A stretch of 64,000 bases of DNA from Candidatus Doudnabacteria bacterium (GTDB lineage: Bacteria; Patescibacteriota; Doudnabacteria; UBA920), in NCBI GenBank assembly GCA_963837465.1, contig CAWINB010000004.1:74853-138852 (forward strand), given 5' to 3'. This document shows, piece by piece, positions 27,499 through 53,673 of the stretch (position 1 is its first letter; every line of letters begins with the position of its first letter). A program made the position numbers and the translations under genes. The notes under the pieces are model-generated. The model had not been told where the DNA came from, did no database searches, and saw only the letters and a list, made by a program, of their open reading frames with translations.

Positions 27499-28353
27499 AT
27501 GCAAATTCAATACCAAAAAATTTCCGGCGGCGCTTTGGAAGGGGTTTGGGAAAACCGCAGGCTGATTTTTTCCGGCCAAACTGACGGCGGCCTTACGAAC
27601 AGGGTAAAATGGTTAAAAAGGTTTTTGTCGGGACGGAAAAACCAACTCCTTAATCTTGGCGCGTCCGAAAATTCAACCATAGACATTTACAGCCTGTTCA
27701 GCAAAAGCGCCAAAGACGCCTGGAAGCAAAGTTTCCGCTTGGCAAAAAAACGCGGCGGCAAACCGGAACTTGAAGAAATTTTTTTGGCCCTGCTCAAGGA
27801 ACTGTCGGTGCAGGAACTGCTTAAGCGCTTGGGCGCCAAAGCGGAAGACGCGCGAATCTTACTGGACAATTATTTAAAACTCAAACAACCGTCCGGCGGG
27901 GAAACCATAACGCGAATTCCTTTTGAAGCTTTTGCCCTGGCCGTAAAATTGCGCGACCATAAAGTCGGGAGCCTGATGCTTTTGGGCGCCCTGCTCAAAA
28001 CCGCGCCCAAAGACAGCATGCTCCAGGCTATTTTCAGCAACATCGGCCTCACCTTGGATAAGCTGGAAGTCTTGGCGGTTTGGCAAGTAAAACTTAATTT
28101 TGATTTTCCGGAAAGCCCCCAAAAAAGCGGACTGCTTGATTGCGCCAGGCAGGCGGAATTTTTGGAGCGGCAGTTTGGTTACAGGTTTGATTTTTCCGCC
28201 ATTGAAACCGCGACAGCTTTATCATCGGCCGACAATAACTCTACCAGAAGGCGCAAAAACACTCTGCGCCTCCTGGTTAAGGCCGGGCTGCTGGCAAAGC
28301 AGGGAAAAAACAAAACTATTTCCGCTTTAATGGTAAAAAAATCTTCAGCTTAG
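27499..28353 (+). CDS. Clp N-terminal-domain-like repeat protein (hypothetical)
   Basis: Two Clp_N-like repeats ('...EEIFLALLKELSVQELLKRLGAKAEDA...'). Confidence 0.4.
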   Translation: MQIQYQKISGGALEGVWENRRLIFSGQTDGGLTNRVKWLKRFLSGRKNQLLNLGASENSTIDIYSLFSKSAKDAWKQSFRLAKKRGGKPELEEIFLALLKELSVQELLKRLGAKAEDARILLDNYLKLKQPSGGETITRIPFEAFALAVKLRDHKVGSLMLLGALLKTAPKDSMLQAIFSNIGLTLDKLEVLAVWQVKLNFDFPESPQKSGLLDCARQAEFLERQFGYRFDFSAIETATALSSADNNSTRRRKNTLRLLVKAGLLAKQGKNKTISALMVKKSSA

Positions 28354-28368
28354 GCTGAAGATTTTTTT
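28342..28368 (+). terminator. intrinsic terminator TCTTCAGC-ttag-GCTGAAGA + T7, overlapping the stop codon
   Basis: Perfect 8-bp stem followed by a T-run. Confidence 0.7.
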
Positions 28369-29465
28369 AAAACCCGGTTTAACCTGCGCATATGCTTATA
28401 AACCCAGTAGCCGAACCTGCTGTTAATCAAATCGTAAGCGCCCGGGTATTGCAGGATGCCGGAGCCGGACTGCGGTCCAAAGCCCAGTTTAAAACGCACA
28501 AAACCGGGCACATCCCCGACCGAGGTTTCCACGCCCCAGAAATCGTAAGCACTCAAGCCTAAATTTTTGGCATCCAGCATGGCCTGCCAATGCAGCAGAT
28601 ACGGCGCCATGACATTTTTATGGTTATAGGACGATCCGCCGAATAAAAATGTCCGGGTGGTGCCAAAATCCACCATGATAGCGGCGGCCAGAAGTTGGTT
28701 CTGTTCGCCAGAAGCGGATCCGCCTCCGGCGGAAAAAACGGCTTTGTAAATATGGAGTTTTAGATCGCCGCGGTTATGGAGAGTAAAAAAATCCGCCAAT
28801 TTTTTATAATAGGAAACCGGAAAAGTATTAAATTTTTGGCGCCTTGATGTTTCCAAAATCAGTTTTAATGCTTCGTCAAAAAATAACCCATGTCCAACGG
28901 AAACATCAAATTCGTCCTTAACTTCGACTTCGTGTTTTTGCGCTACTTTAATGTTATAGCGGGTTTTATGATGCATCTCGGCCAAGAGTTGGTTTTCGGA
29001 TTTTGTAAGGTCAATTAGTAACGTTTTAGCCGGCTGAATATTAACGGTTTTTTTAAGTCGGAGGTCGGAGGTCGGAGGTCGGAGGTCAAATTTTGGCTCA
29101 ACACGGATAAAAACCGAATCTCTAAATTTTTCCCTCAACTTCTCAATTATCAGATTTCCGATTCTCCGATTCTCCGACCTGTCCGACGTAGCCTTGGCGA
29201 AGTTGGATTCTCCGATTTTTCCGGTAACCCATCCGTACGGCGCGTACAAATAATATTTGCCGAAAGGCAACGGCATTTTAATAAGCTGGATAACAGCGGC
29301 GGTTTCCCCGCTTTCCGCTTTCCACTTTAACCTTTTAACTTGCCGTCCAAGGGCTGACTGCCATTCTCCCCACTCCCAGCTCTGCGAAAAACTGCCGCTT
29401 GGGCTTTCTGCCACAAAGCGGTTATAAGATTCTTTATCGGAAGATGATAATTCTGTAAGGTTCAT
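28350..29465 (-). CDS. FemAB-family peptidoglycan peptide-bridge aminoacyltransferase
   Basis: 'YNIKVAQKHEVEVK' and 'FLFGGSSYNHKNVMAPYLLHWQAMLDAKNLGLSAYDFWGV' match FemA/FemX motifs. Confidence 0.75.
   Translation of the reverse strand: MNLTELSSSDKESYNRFVAESPSGSFSQSWEWGEWQSALGRQVKRLKWKAESGETAAVIQLIKMPLPFGKYYLYAPYGWVTGKIGESNFAKATSDRSENRRIGNLIIEKLREKFRDSVFIRVEPKFDLRPPTSDLRLKKTVNIQPAKTLLIDLTKSENQLLAEMHHKTRYNIKVAQKHEVEVKDEFDVSVGHGLFFDEALKLILETSRRQKFNTFPVSYYKKLADFFTLHNRGDLKLHIYKAVFSAGGGSASGEQNQLLAAAIMVDFGTTRTFLFGGSSYNHKNVMAPYLLHWQAMLDAKNLGLSAYDFWGVETSVGDVPGFVRFKLGFGPQSGSGILQYPGAYDLINSRFGYWVYKHMRRLNRVLKKSSA
29058..29087. repeat. tandem heptamer (TCGGAGG)x4 inside femAB (encodes DLRPPTSDLRL); a partly complementary GATTCTCC x2 lies about 80 nt away
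   Basis: Direct 7-nt repeats counted from the femAB start codon. Confidence 0.6.
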
Positions 29466-29650: not shown

Positions 29651-30208
29651 CTAATGTTTTCCTAACATCTTGAGTGATTGCTTCAGTTGTTCACTTTGGG
29701 GCTTTGAGCTGTCAATTTTATTTATAACTTCCCGGACTTCGCGCTGGTTGTAGCCCAAAGCCAACAAGGCGTCAAAAACTTCACTGCTTGCCGCAGGTGA
29801 ACTGCCGGAGAGCGAGCCAACTTTACTTTTGAGTTCGACGATGATCTTCTCCGCGGTCTTAAGCCCCACTCCGGAAATTCTGGTAAACACCCCCGCGTCC
29901 TGGTTGGCAATGGCCTGGCGCACGGCATCGGCAGGGGCTGACGATAAAATAGCCAGCGCGACTTTTGGCCCGACTCCGGAAACCGTAATTAAAAGTTCAA
30001 AAAACTGCAGGCTGGAAAAATCCGGCAACCCAAACAAGCTCTGCCCGTCATCGCTGACCTTCATATAGGTATATAAAGCTACTGTACCGCCAATCTTGTT
30101 TTCCAAAATTTCCGGCGTCACAAAAACCTTATAGCCAATCCCCTGGTTTTCGAGGATAATATAAGTCAAACCTTTTTCTAAGATTACGCCTTTTAAATAA
30201 GAGATCAT
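29651..30208 (-). CDS. ruvA: Holliday junction DNA helicase RuvA
   Basis: 'MISYLKGVILEKGLTYIILENQGIGYKVFVTP' and a C-terminal HhH domain. Confidence 0.9.
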   Translation of the reverse strand: MISYLKGVILEKGLTYIILENQGIGYKVFVTPEILENKIGGTVALYTYMKVSDDGQSLFGLPDFSSLQFFELLITVSGVGPKVALAILSSAPADAVRQAIANQDAGVFTRISGVGLKTAEKIIVELKSKVGSLSGSSPAASSEVFDALLALGYNQREVREVINKIDSSKPQSEQLKQSLKMLGKH

Positions 30209-30369
30209 TTACCCACCTAAATTTTGCCCGAACAGTCAGGCAAACCTAATTATCTAAAAACAGTACCGTATGTTTTCCCAAACTTCCCGCAAAATTTTGG
30301 CGGGTGAACTAATTTTAGCATTATAAAAACCCATTGACAAAAGACGCAACTAAGCATAGATTTGTCTTA

Positions 30370-30758
30370 TATAACCTGGGTTAAGGATCGCGGCTGCGCA
30401 AGCAGGTTGTCCGTCTTTTGCAAGACTAATGAATTAACAAACTTTCGAGATGTTAATCCCGCGATCCAAGCCTAATGTTTTCGGGAGCCGACCCTGGGGG
30501 TTGGATGCTCATTATCCAGCCGTTTTCCGCGCAGACGGAACCTGCAAGGATATGGGTAGTCGGCTTCCGTCCAGTACCAAGCCATAGTAATTAAAGAGGA
30601 ATTGGGCATGCGACCTGATTTGCCGCAGGTTGTAAAATCCGTTTGCCCGGATTTTGAGCCCAGGATTAGTTTTAATTCCTGACAGGCGCGCCGCCAGAAC
30701 GCCATAAGTCAGAACCCGGGCTCGAGTAGTTCCTTCTCCTCCTGCCCGGCTTTTTTTT
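30370..30758 (+). ncRNA. candidate ~390-nt structured ncRNA (class unresolved; 3' region AGUCAGAACCCGGGCU resembles the RNase P RNA P4 3' strand ACAGAACCCGGCUUA)
   Basis: TTGACA-17-TAGATT promoter-like sequence (30334-30362) and intrinsic terminator CCCGGGC...GCCCGGC + T8 (30715-30758). Local pairing GGATCGCGG (30385-30393) with CCGCGATCC (30459-30467). No convincing ORF in 600 nt. uvrB has its own downstream -10 (TATATT about 30789). Confidence 0.35.
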
Positions 30759-30805
30759 GTTCGCCGATGCTGGTATGCTAATAATTGGTATATTGATATT
30801 AAGCT

Positions 30806-32902
30806 ATGTCAAAATTTAAATTACAATCCAAGTTTAAACCTGCTGGCGACCAACCCAAGGCTATTGAAGGCTTGATTAAATCTATAGAGGCCAAGCGCCG
30901 CTACCAGACTTTGCTTGGAGTAACGGGCTCGGGAAAAACCTTCTCCATGGCGAACGTGGTACAGCATTTCCAAAAACCCACGCTCATCATCAGCCACAAC
31001 AAAACTTTGGCCGCGCAGTTGGCCGCGGAGTTTCAGGAATTTTTTCCGGATAACGCCGTGCACTATTTTGTTTCCTATTACGATTACTACCAGCCCGAAG
31101 CCTATATCCCCCGCTCAGATACCTACATAGAAAAAGACACCCAAATTAACGAAGAGATAGACCGTTTGCGCAACGCGGCCACGCAATCGCTTTTATCCCG
31201 AAAAGATGTGCTGATAGTAGCCAGCGTTTCCTGCATTTACGGGCTTGGCAACCCCGCCAATTATTTGGAACTGTCCCTGCCGGTAAAAAAAGGCCAGTCG
31301 CTTAAACGCGACAAGCTAATTAGAAGGCTAACAGACCTCCAGTATCATAGAAACGATCTTGAGCTGGAGCGCGGAAGTTTTAGAGCCAAGGGCGACGTGG
31401 TGGAAATTATTTTATCTTCCGAGGACACCGTTATCCGTATGGATTTTTTTGGCGATGTCCTGGAGAATATAGAACGTCTGGACGTGGTAACCGGCCGCAA
31501 AATCGAAAGCTTAAAGGAATTTATTATTTTCCCGGCCAAGCATTTTGTGACGCCCGAAGACAAGCTTAAGGAGGCCACGGAAAATATCCGGCGGGAACTG
31601 GCTGACCAGATTAAAAAATTCAAATCGCGGGACAAGCTTATAGAAGCCCAGCGCGTAGAACAGCGCACCAATTTTGACCTGGAAATGCTCACCAACACCG
31701 GTTTTGTTTCGGGCATAGAAAACTACTCCCGCCAGCTGGAAGGCCGCGAAGCCGGCAGTCCGCCTTCCACATTAATTGATTATTTTCCCGATGACTTCCT
31801 TTTATTTATAGACGAATCCCACCAGAGCATCCCGCAAATTGGCGCCATGTACGAGGGCGACAAATCGCGCAAAACCACTTTGGTGGATTACGGCTTCCGG
31901 CTGCCCAGCGCTTTGGACAACCGGCCGTTAAAATTCGCCGAGTTTGAAAAAAAAATCAACCAGGTAATTTTTGTTTCCGCCACGCCGGCCGAGTTTGAAA
32001 TAGAAAGAAGCCTGACGCAAAAAGACACCAAGTTCGTCACAAAGTCCAAACGTACACAAGAGGAGCAAAGCATTATAGACGCGCGCGGGAAATTAAAACA
32101 AATGGATCCGCCTTCAATTGTTGAGCAAATTATCCGCCCCACTGGACTGCTTGACCCAACAATAGAAATCAAACCCATAAAAAACCAAGTGGATGATTTA
32201 ATGGAGCGGATTAAAGAACGGATAAATAAACACCAGCGCGTTTTGGTGGCAACCTTAACCAAGCGGATGGCCGAAGAGTTGACCGAATATTTAAAAGAAG
32301 ACGGCGTAAAAGTCCAGTACCTGCACAGCGATGTGGATACTTTTGAGCGTTTGGAAATACTACGCGACCTGCGCTTGGGAGTTTTTAATGTCTTGGTGGG
32401 AATTAACCTATTACGGGAAGGCCTGGATTTGCCGGAAGTTTCCCTGGTGGCAATTTTGGACGCGGACAAAGAAGGTTTTTTGCGCAGCGAAACTTTTTTT
32501 ATGCAAATGATGGGCCGCGCGGCCCGCCACTTAGAGGGCCATGTGGTAATGTATGCCGATAGGATTACCGGGAGTATGGATAGAGCTATAAGCGAAACCA
32601 CCCGCCGCCGCAAACTCCAGGAAAACTATAACAAAAAGCACGGCATTACCCCGCAGTCCATAAAAAAAGCCATAGCCGATTCCCGCCTGGCCGGCAGCAA
32701 AAAAGAAATTGAAGCTGTTGACGACGAGGCCAAGCAGATTGATCCGAGCAAAATGAACAACGAAGAGATAAAATTCTACATGGACGAACTGGAACAACAA
32801 ATGGACTTGGCCGCCAAAAACCTGGAATTTGAACTTGCGGCGAGACTAAGGGACAGAATTGATGAGATAAAAAAAGTGCAAAAACTGACAGCAAAAAGAT
32901 AA
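30806..32902 (+). CDS. uvrB: excinuclease ABC subunit B
   Basis: 'LLGVTGSGKTFSMANVV' Walker A, helicase motifs and a C-terminal UVR domain. Confidence 0.95.
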   Translation: MSKFKLQSKFKPAGDQPKAIEGLIKSIEAKRRYQTLLGVTGSGKTFSMANVVQHFQKPTLIISHNKTLAAQLAAEFQEFFPDNAVHYFVSYYDYYQPEAYIPRSDTYIEKDTQINEEIDRLRNAATQSLLSRKDVLIVASVSCIYGLGNPANYLELSLPVKKGQSLKRDKLIRRLTDLQYHRNDLELERGSFRAKGDVVEIILSSEDTVIRMDFFGDVLENIERLDVVTGRKIESLKEFIIFPAKHFVTPEDKLKEATENIRRELADQIKKFKSRDKLIEAQRVEQRTNFDLEMLTNTGFVSGIENYSRQLEGREAGSPPSTLIDYFPDDFLLFIDESHQSIPQIGAMYEGDKSRKTTLVDYGFRLPSALDNRPLKFAEFEKKINQVIFVSATPAEFEIERSLTQKDTKFVTKSKRTQEEQSIIDARGKLKQMDPPSIVEQIIRPTGLLDPTIEIKPIKNQVDDLMERIKERINKHQRVLVATLTKRMAEELTEYLKEDGVKVQYLHSDVDTFERLEILRDLRLGVFNVLVGINLLREGLDLPEVSLVAILDADKEGFLRSETFFMQMMGRAARHLEGHVVMYADRITGSMDRAISETTRRRKLQENYNKKHGITPQSIKKAIADSRLAGSKKEIEAVDDEAKQIDPSKMNNEEIKFYMDELEQQMDLAAKNLEFELAARLRDRIDEIKKVQKLTAKR

Positions 32903-53466: not shown

Positions 53467-53673
53467 TGTTTCTAAAACACAAAGCCCCGCGCCAGCATGA
53501 GCCTTACGGCTCCATGGCCTTTCGACCATGACCCAACGAAGAGTAGCTGAACACGGGGTTCAGTATTTTCGTTGGGTTTTTTCATGCCATGCCCGGGCCC
53601 TTGGGGGGCTGCGGGTTTAGGCATATTAAGTTGTTAGCCTTATTTTAGGGTAATTTTAGGTTTTTTACAAATT

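Follow-up and report, generated by a model that had tools for sequence, protein, structure and literature searches.

The analysed stretch of DNA, called the window in the following, comprises 64,000 nucleotides (nt) of a Candidatus Doudnabacteria genome. Within it, the genes ruvA (29651–30208, minus strand) and uvrB (30806–32902, plus strand) are divergently oriented and separated by a spacer of 597 nt (30209–30805). As judged from sequence, this spacer is predicted to hold a gene for a structured non-coding RNA of ~390 nt, which would extend from about 30369 to 30758 on the plus strand and is probably highly expressed. RNAs of the same family occupy the ruvA/uvrB spacer in one branch of Candidatus Doudnabacteria. 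That the spacer harbors a real and independent structured RNA gene of a new family is considered highly probable. The coordinates of the features are compiled in Table 1.

Loci of relatives, designated by the letter L and a number, were drawn from species-representative genomes, metagenomes, and Logan/JGI/ENA assemblies. Proteins from metagenome-assembled genomes of Doudnabacteria, a lineage of the Candidate Phyla Radiation (CPR), reach 86% identity to the UvrB of the window, and the closest relative of the RuvA of the source genome is 83% identical. About 45 loci with ruvA and uvrB as divergent neighbors were gathered, whose spacers measure 73–2839 nt. In about 30 of them the spacer is long and follows a common plan: a near-consensus promoter is followed by 210–690 nt of G+C-rich hairpins, a strong hairpin with a run of six to eight T, and an extended -10 element of uvrB.

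Transcription signals and extent of the predicted RNA gene

Comparing the spacer of the window with those of the relatives by means of BLAST and nhmmer, the promoter block ATTTTAGCAnTATAAAAAnCCnTTGACAAA, a block comprising the terminator and the uvrB promoter, an 18-nt stretch around AAAGAGGAATTGGGCA, and a weak match to L004 were recovered. For the rest of the RNA body, neither BLASTN nor nhmmer yielded matches in relatives, and this body has diverged even between genomes whose UvrB proteins are 86% identical. A remote BLASTN search of the spacer against the phage collection gave no matches.

From the position of the sigma-70-type promoter, a transcription start of the RNA gene at about 30369 is predicted. 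The 35-nt block around this promoter is 87–94% identical to that of relatives (BLAST), and of 30 spacers of relatives, 28 contain the simple pattern TTGAC(A)-N15–19-TAnnnT at the corresponding position. The -35 hexamers of this promoter and of the divergent ruvA promoter share the base pairs 30334–30340 (TTGACAA/TTGTCAA), and the sharing is kept in relatives. Binding of RNA polymerase to the two promoters would therefore be mutually exclusive.

The run of eight T that completes the intrinsic terminator ends 48 nt upstream of the uvrB ATG. This terminator was missed by the consensus scanner because its loop exceeds the maximum of 8 nt allowed there; the terminator loop of L005 is nearly identical. 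Window positions 30749–30776 and L004 are 93% identical (BLAST block). Downstream of the extended -10 element, the uvrB leader is A/U-rich and lacks a Shine-Dalgarno (SD) sequence up to the ATG at 30806. Since uvrB has an extended -10 element directly after the T-run, it would be independent of the upstream unit, and this unit would be a gene of its own. At the sequence level, the unit thus possesses what is expected of an independent small or stable RNA gene, namely its own conserved promoter and a conserved intrinsic terminator.

The open reading frames (ORFs) of the spacer are short (31–77 amino acids), and none of them is conserved in relatives. The original prediction had placed here a promoter-to-terminator-bounded non-coding transcript of ~390 nt with a rightward TTGACA-17-TAGATT promoter, a hairpin plus T8 in front of uvrB, a separate -10 element of uvrB downstream, and no credible ORF. 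All of these assignments are confirmed, the stem of the hairpin beginning at 30716, and the transcript as a whole is strongly supported by the conserved promoter and terminator, the extended -10 element of uvrB, and the covarying helices described below.

Structural modules and comparison with known RNA families

The plus strand of 30365–30760 folds with -141 kcal/mol, which corresponds to z = -3.7 relative to dinucleotide shuffles. With z = -3.1, the fold of the minus strand is likewise good, so that the strand cannot be assigned from folding energy alone. The predicted fold is composed of a 5' hairpin (H0) and four modules (A to D), which adopt the same fold in isolation as in the whole RNA; the z values are -2.2 for H0 plus A, -1.7 for B, -2.8 for C, and -2.3 for D plus terminator.

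Module A is common to the window and to L004, L095, L106, L090, and L096. It is closed by helix P1, a perfect 9-bp inverted repeat whose two strands had already been noted as an example of long-range complementarity. A covariance model of this module (R1) assigned 69 bits to the copy of the window and 58–94 bits to the five relatives; applied to 400 kb, it recovered only its six training sequences, so that the family was not extended. In P1 and arm 1, 94.5% of the cells are standard pairs, as compared to 39–59% with the partners slid, and four pairs have changed on both sides. The remaining two arms consist of unrelated sequences among the relatives, but their hairpins still form. L081 and L002 contain a junction with the topology of module A and an entirely different sequence. 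At the position of H0, a hairpin of other sequence is found in L004, L090, L096, L095, and L106.

The architecture of module C is also present in L004, L081, L095, L106, L164, and L165; in L001, a shorter form without helix Pc was recognized by eye. Because MAFFT gave no structural alignment, the helices were parsed by hand and then counted by script. The sequence of helix Pb differs in nearly every member, and there are no non-standard pairs in six of the eight members, one in L001, and two in L165. Helix Pc shows a change from G-C to A-U in L081. A loose pattern of module C, searched on both strands of 964 kb, occurred once per locus, exclusively in this spacer and on the sense strand. Furthermore, Pb and P1 contain G-U pairs, which in a transcript of the opposite strand would become A-C mismatches. 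These pairs are compatible with the plus strand only, in agreement with the orientation of promoter and terminator. In modules A and C, structure is thus conserved by compensatory changes and there is no conserved ORF, which is the outcome of the comparison of folds among relatives that had been proposed along with the original prediction.

For module B, no homologue was detected in relatives by BLAST or nhmmer; the one resemblance, seen by eye, is in L011, where a similar hairpin likewise starts with UUCGGGAGCCG. For module D, no homologue was found in relatives by BLAST.

Known families were searched with Rfam 15 in the window and in the loci of relatives, and with ARAGORN for tRNA and tmRNA. 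At the gathering score, nothing was found in the spacer. The only such match in the 64 kb is a LOOT RNA (RF03000) at 53499–53623 on the minus strand, which is of full length (65.6 bits) and lies between two minus-strand ORFs. At E ≤ 10, three chance-level matches were obtained in 30150–30860, none of them to RNase P, tmRNA, 6S, signal recognition particle (SRP), ROOL, or GOLLD RNA. Searches of 17 and then of 10 relatives' loci, the latter at E ≤ 5, yielded tRNAs only. The models suggested originally for a check (RNase P, 6S, SRP, and tmRNA) accordingly gave no match in the spacer at either threshold. That a tmRNA is unlikely, as had been stated, is borne out by ARAGORN, which detected none in the window or in 20 relatives' loci; a tRNA-like domain with CCA and tag frame was found by neither ARAGORN nor Rfam.

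The proposed resemblance of a 3' segment to helix P4 of RNase P RNA had to be abandoned. The covariance models RNaseP_bact_a and RNaseP_bact_b match neither the window (E ≤ 10) nor the ten relatives (E ≤ 5), and a P4 pseudoknot of conserved regions CR-I and CR-V was not found. The string AGUCAGAACCCGGGCU does exist at 30708–30723; within it, CCGGGC forms the 5' arm of the terminator stem, and the string is not conserved in relatives. It is most improbable that the spacer encodes a divergent housekeeping RNA (RNase P, tmRNA, 6S or SRP RNA) that was missed by the standard models. A length of ~390 nt would suit RNase P, and the context is one of stable RNAs, with tRNAs in the relatives. In addition, GAGGAAUUGGGC (30596–30607) loosely resembles CR-I and UCAGAACCCGGGCU (30709–30722) resembles CR-V, for which we take GAGGAAAGUCCGGGC and ACAGAACCCGGCUU of the E. 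coli M1 sequence as references. However, besides the lack of Rfam and ARAGORN matches in window and relatives, relatives lack the CR-V-like string CAGAACCCGGG, part of which lies in the terminator stem, and the GGGC of the CR-I-like string pairs locally with a GCCC 50 nt downstream in all eight members of module C. The two strings are only ~110 nt apart, and the RNA body, unlike a catalytic core, has diverged even at 86% UvrB identity.

Three further candidates were rejected: a CsrA sponge (GGA motifs occur at about chance frequency), a boxA antiterminator (the resemblance is on the wrong strand), and mimicry of the 16S 5' end (too weak).

Table 1. Predicted features of the ruvA-uvrB spacer (window coordinates)
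Feature	Position	Strand	Basis and remarks
Palindrome CCCGCAAAATTTTGGCGGG in the ruvA 5' leader, G/C-rich	30286–30304	-	Inverted repeat; absent from relatives' spacers
ruvA promoter, TTGTCA-17-TAAAAT with upstream TG	30312–30340	-	Promoter scan; block ATTTTAGCAnTATAAAAAnCCnTTGACAAA kept in relatives
RNA promoter, sigma-70 type, TTGACA-17-TAGATT	30334–30362	+	Scan; 10 of 12 consensus positions match
H0, 5' hairpin UAAC-CUGG-GUUA	30372–30383	+	Fold of isolated module
Module A, cloverleaf-like four-way junction	30385–30467	+	Predicted fold
Module A, P1	30385–30393 / 30459–30467	+	Fold
Module A, arm 1 with GCAA loop	30394–30405	+	Fold
Module A, arm 2	30413–30426	+	Fold
Module A, arm 3	30433–30457	+	Fold
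Module B, long irregular hairpin	30482–30569	+	Inverted repeat and fold; 11-bp closing stem 30482–30492 / 30559–30569 around two sub-hairpins
SD-like motif AAAGAGGAAUU, A/U-flanked	30593–30603	+	Unpaired in module fold; 5' edge of module C
Module C, three-way junction	30604–30661	+	Isolated fold, z = -2.8
Module C, Pa, GGGC / GCCC	30604–30607 / 30658–30661	+	Invariant in eight members, hence uninformative
Module C, Pb	30612–30617 / 30626–30631	+	Helix in all eight members
Module C, Pc, AAAAUCCG / CGGAUUUU	30634–30641 / 30648–30655	+	Keeps AAAAUCC...GGAUUUU
Module D, two small hairpins	30661–30665 / 30677–30681; 30685–30688 / 30700–30703	+	Fold; window-specific
Intrinsic terminator	30716–30758	+	6-bp all-G/C stem, CCGGGC 30716–30721 / GCCCGG 30744–30749; pyrimidine-rich loop of 22 nt; T8 at 30751–30758
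Anti-SD-like UUCCUUCUCCUCCU in terminator loop	30729–30743	+	Loop position
uvrB extended -10, TGgTATGCT	30771–30779	+	Aligns with TGnTATnAT straight after the T-run in L004, L095, L081, L001, L161, L163, and L034

Shine-Dalgarno-like and anti-Shine-Dalgarno-like motifs

In an unbiased count, the k-mers most shared among 28 RNA bodies were, after T-runs, GGAGGA, GAGGAA, AAAGAGG, and TCCTCC. An A/U-flanked NGAGGR motif, which resembles an SD sequence, is present in 25 of the 28 RNAs, as compared to 4.1 ± 1.9 (maximum 10) in dinucleotide shuffles and two on the antisense strand. It is typically located ~10–15 nt after a tRNA or junction and 5–10 nt before a stable helix; its distance to the terminator ranges from 100 to 330 nt among the members. 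Most copies have no start codon at the distance of a ribosome binding site, such that this motif, like an element of the STAB-SD type, mostly does not initiate an adjacent ORF.

The complementary motif CCTCC occurs within the final 60 nt before the T-run in 16 of the 28 RNAs (2.6 ± 1.6 in shuffles). About half of the family's terminal hairpins, which precede the T-run, contain this motif, whereas among 228 hairpins with a T-run located elsewhere in the window and in these loci, only 4 do. In the window, the terminator loop (30722–30743) reads UCGAGUAGUUCCUUCUCCUCCU and includes CUCCUCCU; a C/U-rich motif of the anti-SD type is thus exposed in a hairpin loop, as would be expected of a pairing seed. 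L081 and L086 contain CACCUCC, presumably the sequence of the 16S 3' end.

The source genome itself seems to be poor in SD sequences. Few of the 38 long ORFs of the window are preceded by an SD of GGAGG type, even with starts chosen to favor an SD, and the upstream regions are mostly A/U-rich. A clear exception is the ORF starting at about 34026 (AAGGAGGCAAAAAATG). Likewise, no SD is present in the A/U-rich initiation regions of ruvA and uvrB in relatives, where several of the ruvA genes appear to be leaderless.

It is highly improbable that the transcript is the mRNA of a micro-protein and that the SD-like motif serves the 24-codon ORF MRPDLPQVVKSVCPDFEPRISFNS, which begins at the ATG at 30608, 8 nt after the motif. 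In the window, SD and spacing are indeed canonical, and in L002 the motif precedes a real ORF of 116–128 amino acids with a helix-turn-helix (HTH) domain, the sole credible ORF in this slot. However, most members possess no ATG, GTG or TTG at 3–12 nt, and the ORFs that follow the motif in relatives, where present, comprise 1–60 codons of unrelated sequence. The long open frames downstream of the motif in L001, L004, and L081 encode unrelated Arg/Pro-rich strings. The nearest homologues of module C have ACA, AAA or AUA in place of the AUG of the window, and the region evolves via compensatory base-pair changes.

A tentative explanation, less likely true than false, is a mechanism in which both motifs of the non-coding RNA are used. 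The SD-like element would engage the 3' end of 16S rRNA on 30S subunits and could act as an anchor similar to STAB-SD, which would shield the downstream module once upstream tRNA or tRNA-like modules have been cut off. The CCUCC of the terminator loop might be a seed for pairing with sequences of GGAGG type, i.e. with the few SD-bearing mRNAs or with the SD-like element of the same RNA. In this case, the RNA would be a regulatory or stable RNA that acts in trans and is linked to ribosomes or translation, and neither a housekeeping ribozyme nor a leader of uvrB. Taken together as one explanation, the RNA gene and this mechanism are given an even chance.

Several observations weigh against this explanation. 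Promoter, terminator, and RNA ends are predictions, and the covariation data, albeit consistent, come from a small set of 6–8 sequences, aligned in part by hand. For modules B and D, there is no homologue that would indicate selection. The mechanism is deduced from enriched motifs against an apparently SD-poor background. With a median percentile of 0.46, the SD-like motif is predicted to be of average accessibility; the anti-SD motif is somewhat exposed (0.73). The partner of the SD-like motif in the minimum free energy structure is inconsistent between RNAs. Complementarity of the SD-like region to the RNA's own terminator is no better than to non-self terminators (permutation p = 0.24), and no co-evolution of the RNA 3' end with the initiation regions of ruvA and uvrB was detected (p = 0.96 and 0.12, respectively). 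Throughout the RNAs, hexamers of the GGAGG-like and of the CCUCC-like class each show an enrichment of about 3-fold, and part of the motif signal may stem from helices made of a purine and a pyrimidine strand. Finally, four relatives have the SD-like motif immediately before a tRNA, a position at which it would not be needed for protection.

The same motifs could in principle serve in cis. In a leader or attenuator of uvrB, read-through would be gated at the terminator, e.g. through competition of the CCUCC-containing terminator with the SD-like element or with a bound 30S subunit. The position of the terminator on the same strand and so close to the uvrB ATG, the conserved adjacency to uvrB, and duplexes of SD-like and anti-SD motifs of -8 to -18 kcal/mol, which would allow for an alternative structure, are compatible with this function. 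It is nevertheless unlikely: uvrB has its own conserved extended -10 element after the T-run, as is not expected downstream of an attenuator or riboswitch leader, and the T8 terminator is predicted to be strong. CCUCC is mostly located in the loop and not in the stem, so that pairing would leave the terminator closed. Moreover, the complementarity is not self-specific (see above), the distance between motif and terminator is variable, and in relatives the unit also includes genuine tRNAs.

Variable contents of the spacer, functional precedents, and significance

At or next to the position of module A, several relatives carry genuine tRNAs: tRNA-Ala (UGC) in L012, tRNA-Asn and tRNA-Arg in L085, tRNA-Trp in L090, and one tRNA in L163. 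At these positions, ARAGORN further reported 'tRNA-???' with anticodons of 2 or 4 nt in L003 (spacer 427–506), L014 (2812–2887), and L097 (2164–2236). By eye, additional tRNA-like sequences carrying large insertions were recognized in the spacers of L003, L100, and L102; in L003, a tRNA-like sequence is adjacent to 427–506. These aberrant tRNA-like sequences would share a transcript with the family RNA and might mimic tRNA without decoding. ARAGORN reported no tRNA in the window, and its spacer gave no match to the tRNA model even at E ≤ 10. Module A shares the four-way topology of tRNA, but it is recognized by neither RF00005 nor ARAGORN and has no T-loop and no 3' CCA; the same tools do detect the true tRNAs in the relatives' spacers.

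The locus behaves as a stable-RNA operon slot: from one relative to another, modules are exchanged or missing, or tRNAs and tRNA-like sequences stand in their place. In L002, the ORF mentioned above is located between the SD-like motif and the terminator (approximately nt 118–560 of the RNA body); its HTH_32/HTH_29 match (E about 1e-7) is of transposase type. The slot of L014 contains extra genes. L007 (spacer 351–426) and L010 (spacer 485–564) share an 80-nt block of 85% identity (GCCGAAA.GAUGGUCGGGAAGUA.CCGCCGCGGCU...GUUAUGCCGGAGUA), and L161 and L163 have the block CGCUCUCG.UGGG..GCGAGAAAAAGGG.CGGCA in common; no Rfam match was obtained for either block. In L004, L095, L161, and L165, the first ~100 nt from ruvA to the shared promoter contain arrays of direct and inverted repeats of TTGACAAAA/TTGTCAAT, which are absent from the window and could be operators or decoy -35 sites.

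These contents bear on two further explanations. The transcript might be a polycistronic precursor of several small stable RNAs, whose four-way junction would be tRNA-derived punctuation cut by RNase P or RNase Z; processing or protection would take place at the A/U-rich SD-like linker, and the 3' piece would be similar to the 3' external transcribed spacer (3'ETS) of a tRNA operon. To this we assign a low, though appreciable, probability. True tRNAs (Ala, Asn, Arg, and Trp) and tRNA-like sequences with abnormal anticodon loops at the position of module A speak for it, as do the cloverleaf topology of module A and the SD-like motif, which follows the 3' end of the tRNA or junction by ~10–15 nt in the four relatives examined (L012, L085, L003, and L004). 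The failure of module A to match the tRNA model, together with its missing T-loop and 3' CCA, argues against it. A precursor of this kind overlaps with the explanation preferred here rather than excluding it.

Alternatively, the RNA product could be largely irrelevant, either because the unit acts through promoter competition with ruvA or because the slot collects decayed tRNA genes and debris of mobile elements. The conserved use of the same base pairs by the divergent -35 hexamers would fit the former, and the very fast turnover of the body sequence, the transposase HTH fragment of L002, the aberrant tRNA-like sequences, and the extra genes of L014 would fit the latter. However, compensatory changes keep the helices of modules A and C, the enrichment of the SD-like and anti-SD motifs is strong and strand-specific, the terminator is conserved, and the RNA folds better than shuffled sequence. 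An irrelevant product is thus improbable.

Two neighboring features lie outside the RNA gene. The 19-bp near-palindrome reported upstream of ruvA does exist; it belongs, though, to the ruvA leader. Positions 30284–30308 are 80% complementary over 25 nt to 30208–30232, which cover the SD (AGGUGGG) and the start codon of ruvA. Self-folding of the palindrome versus pairing with SD and start could constitute a translational switch. This arrangement appears to be specific for the window, because the ruvA genes of several relatives are apparently leaderless. Directly downstream of ruvA lies a gene of the FemAB family (28350–29465, minus strand; Pfam FemAB, E = 2.6e-34), a synteny that is kept in relatives. 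The product of this gene resembles aminoacyl-tRNA-dependent peptidyltransferases. A link between the tRNA-like cassettes and this gene was considered and is unlikely, as the tRNA identities (Asn, Arg, and Trp) do not fit.

The preferred explanation, an independent non-coding RNA that may use its two motifs on the ribosome, has functional precedents; none of the systems compared is homologous to the family RNA. In the STAB-SD of B. thuringiensis cryIIIA, an SD binds the 16S 3' end on the 30S subunit and stabilizes the RNA without translation of an adjacent ORF. For hbs mRNA of B. subtilis, ribosomes at a strong SD are described to block 5'-to-3' decay by RNase J1 (part of PMC5737220). Similarly, the A/U-flanked GGAGG-type motif of the family RNA mostly lacks an ORF and precedes a stable helix. 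In contrast to these mRNA elements, it is internal to a non-coding, tRNA-linked transcript of an apparently SD-poor CPR genome and is known from sequence.

In RNAIII and RsaE-type small RNAs of S. aureus, C/U-rich motifs resembling an anti-SD are exposed in hairpin loops, the terminator hairpin included, where they pair with SD sequences and block translation; RNAIII is a long RNA of many hairpins with its own promoter and terminator. For icaR of S. aureus, control by pairing of the 3' untranslated region with the SD is described (part of PMC3868564). The family RNA resembles these in the C/U-rich anti-SD-like motif of its terminator loop or 3' region, but it shows no homology to them in sequence or structure, no Rfam match, and no co-evolution with the initiation regions of the neighboring genes.

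E. coli 3'ETS-leuZ, ROOL, and GOLLD are tRNA-linked non-coding segments with functions of their own. ROOL and GOLLD are described as large structured RNAs (part of PMC12286853). As in these cases, a non-coding RNA is co-transcribed with tRNAs or located beside them; however, the copy of the window has no tRNA, matches neither the ROOL nor the GOLLD model, and the family RNA is smaller and far more variable. To type A RNase P RNA, the likeness consists of size and the two short strings similar to CR-I and CR-V; the differences are the failure of the covariance models, the short distance between the strings, the identity of one of them with the terminator stem, and the missing conserved core.

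No account of an RNA from the ruvA-uvrB spacer was found in the literature searched. The RNA thus represents a family absent from Rfam and from that literature, which is lineage-restricted, modular, and bound to a fixed genomic address. It is recognizable by this address and its conserved signals, by the two modules that covary, and by two motifs of diagnostic value. Regulatory and stable RNAs are almost unexplored in the CPR, whose members are uncultured and have tiny genomes and unusual ribosomes. It is unusual that tRNAs, aberrant tRNA-like sequences, and unrelated structured modules replace one another in one transcription unit, and that an organism apparently poor in SD sequences retains an SD/anti-SD pair in a non-coding RNA. 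It is conceivable, if rather doubtful, that the family stands for a class of ribosome-engaging RNAs, in which an abundant modular RNA docks on the idle anti-SD of the 30S subunit and delivers or sequesters the attached structured or tRNA-like modules. In functional terms, such an RNA would then be akin to tmRNA or to regulatory RNAs that associate with ribosomes, albeit with a different architecture. If the motifs do not contact the ribosome, a new structured RNA family would still remain, along with a caution against calling RNase P from short motif resemblances. If they do, the RNA would bear on the role of the conserved 16S anti-SD in lineages that rarely use SD-led initiation.

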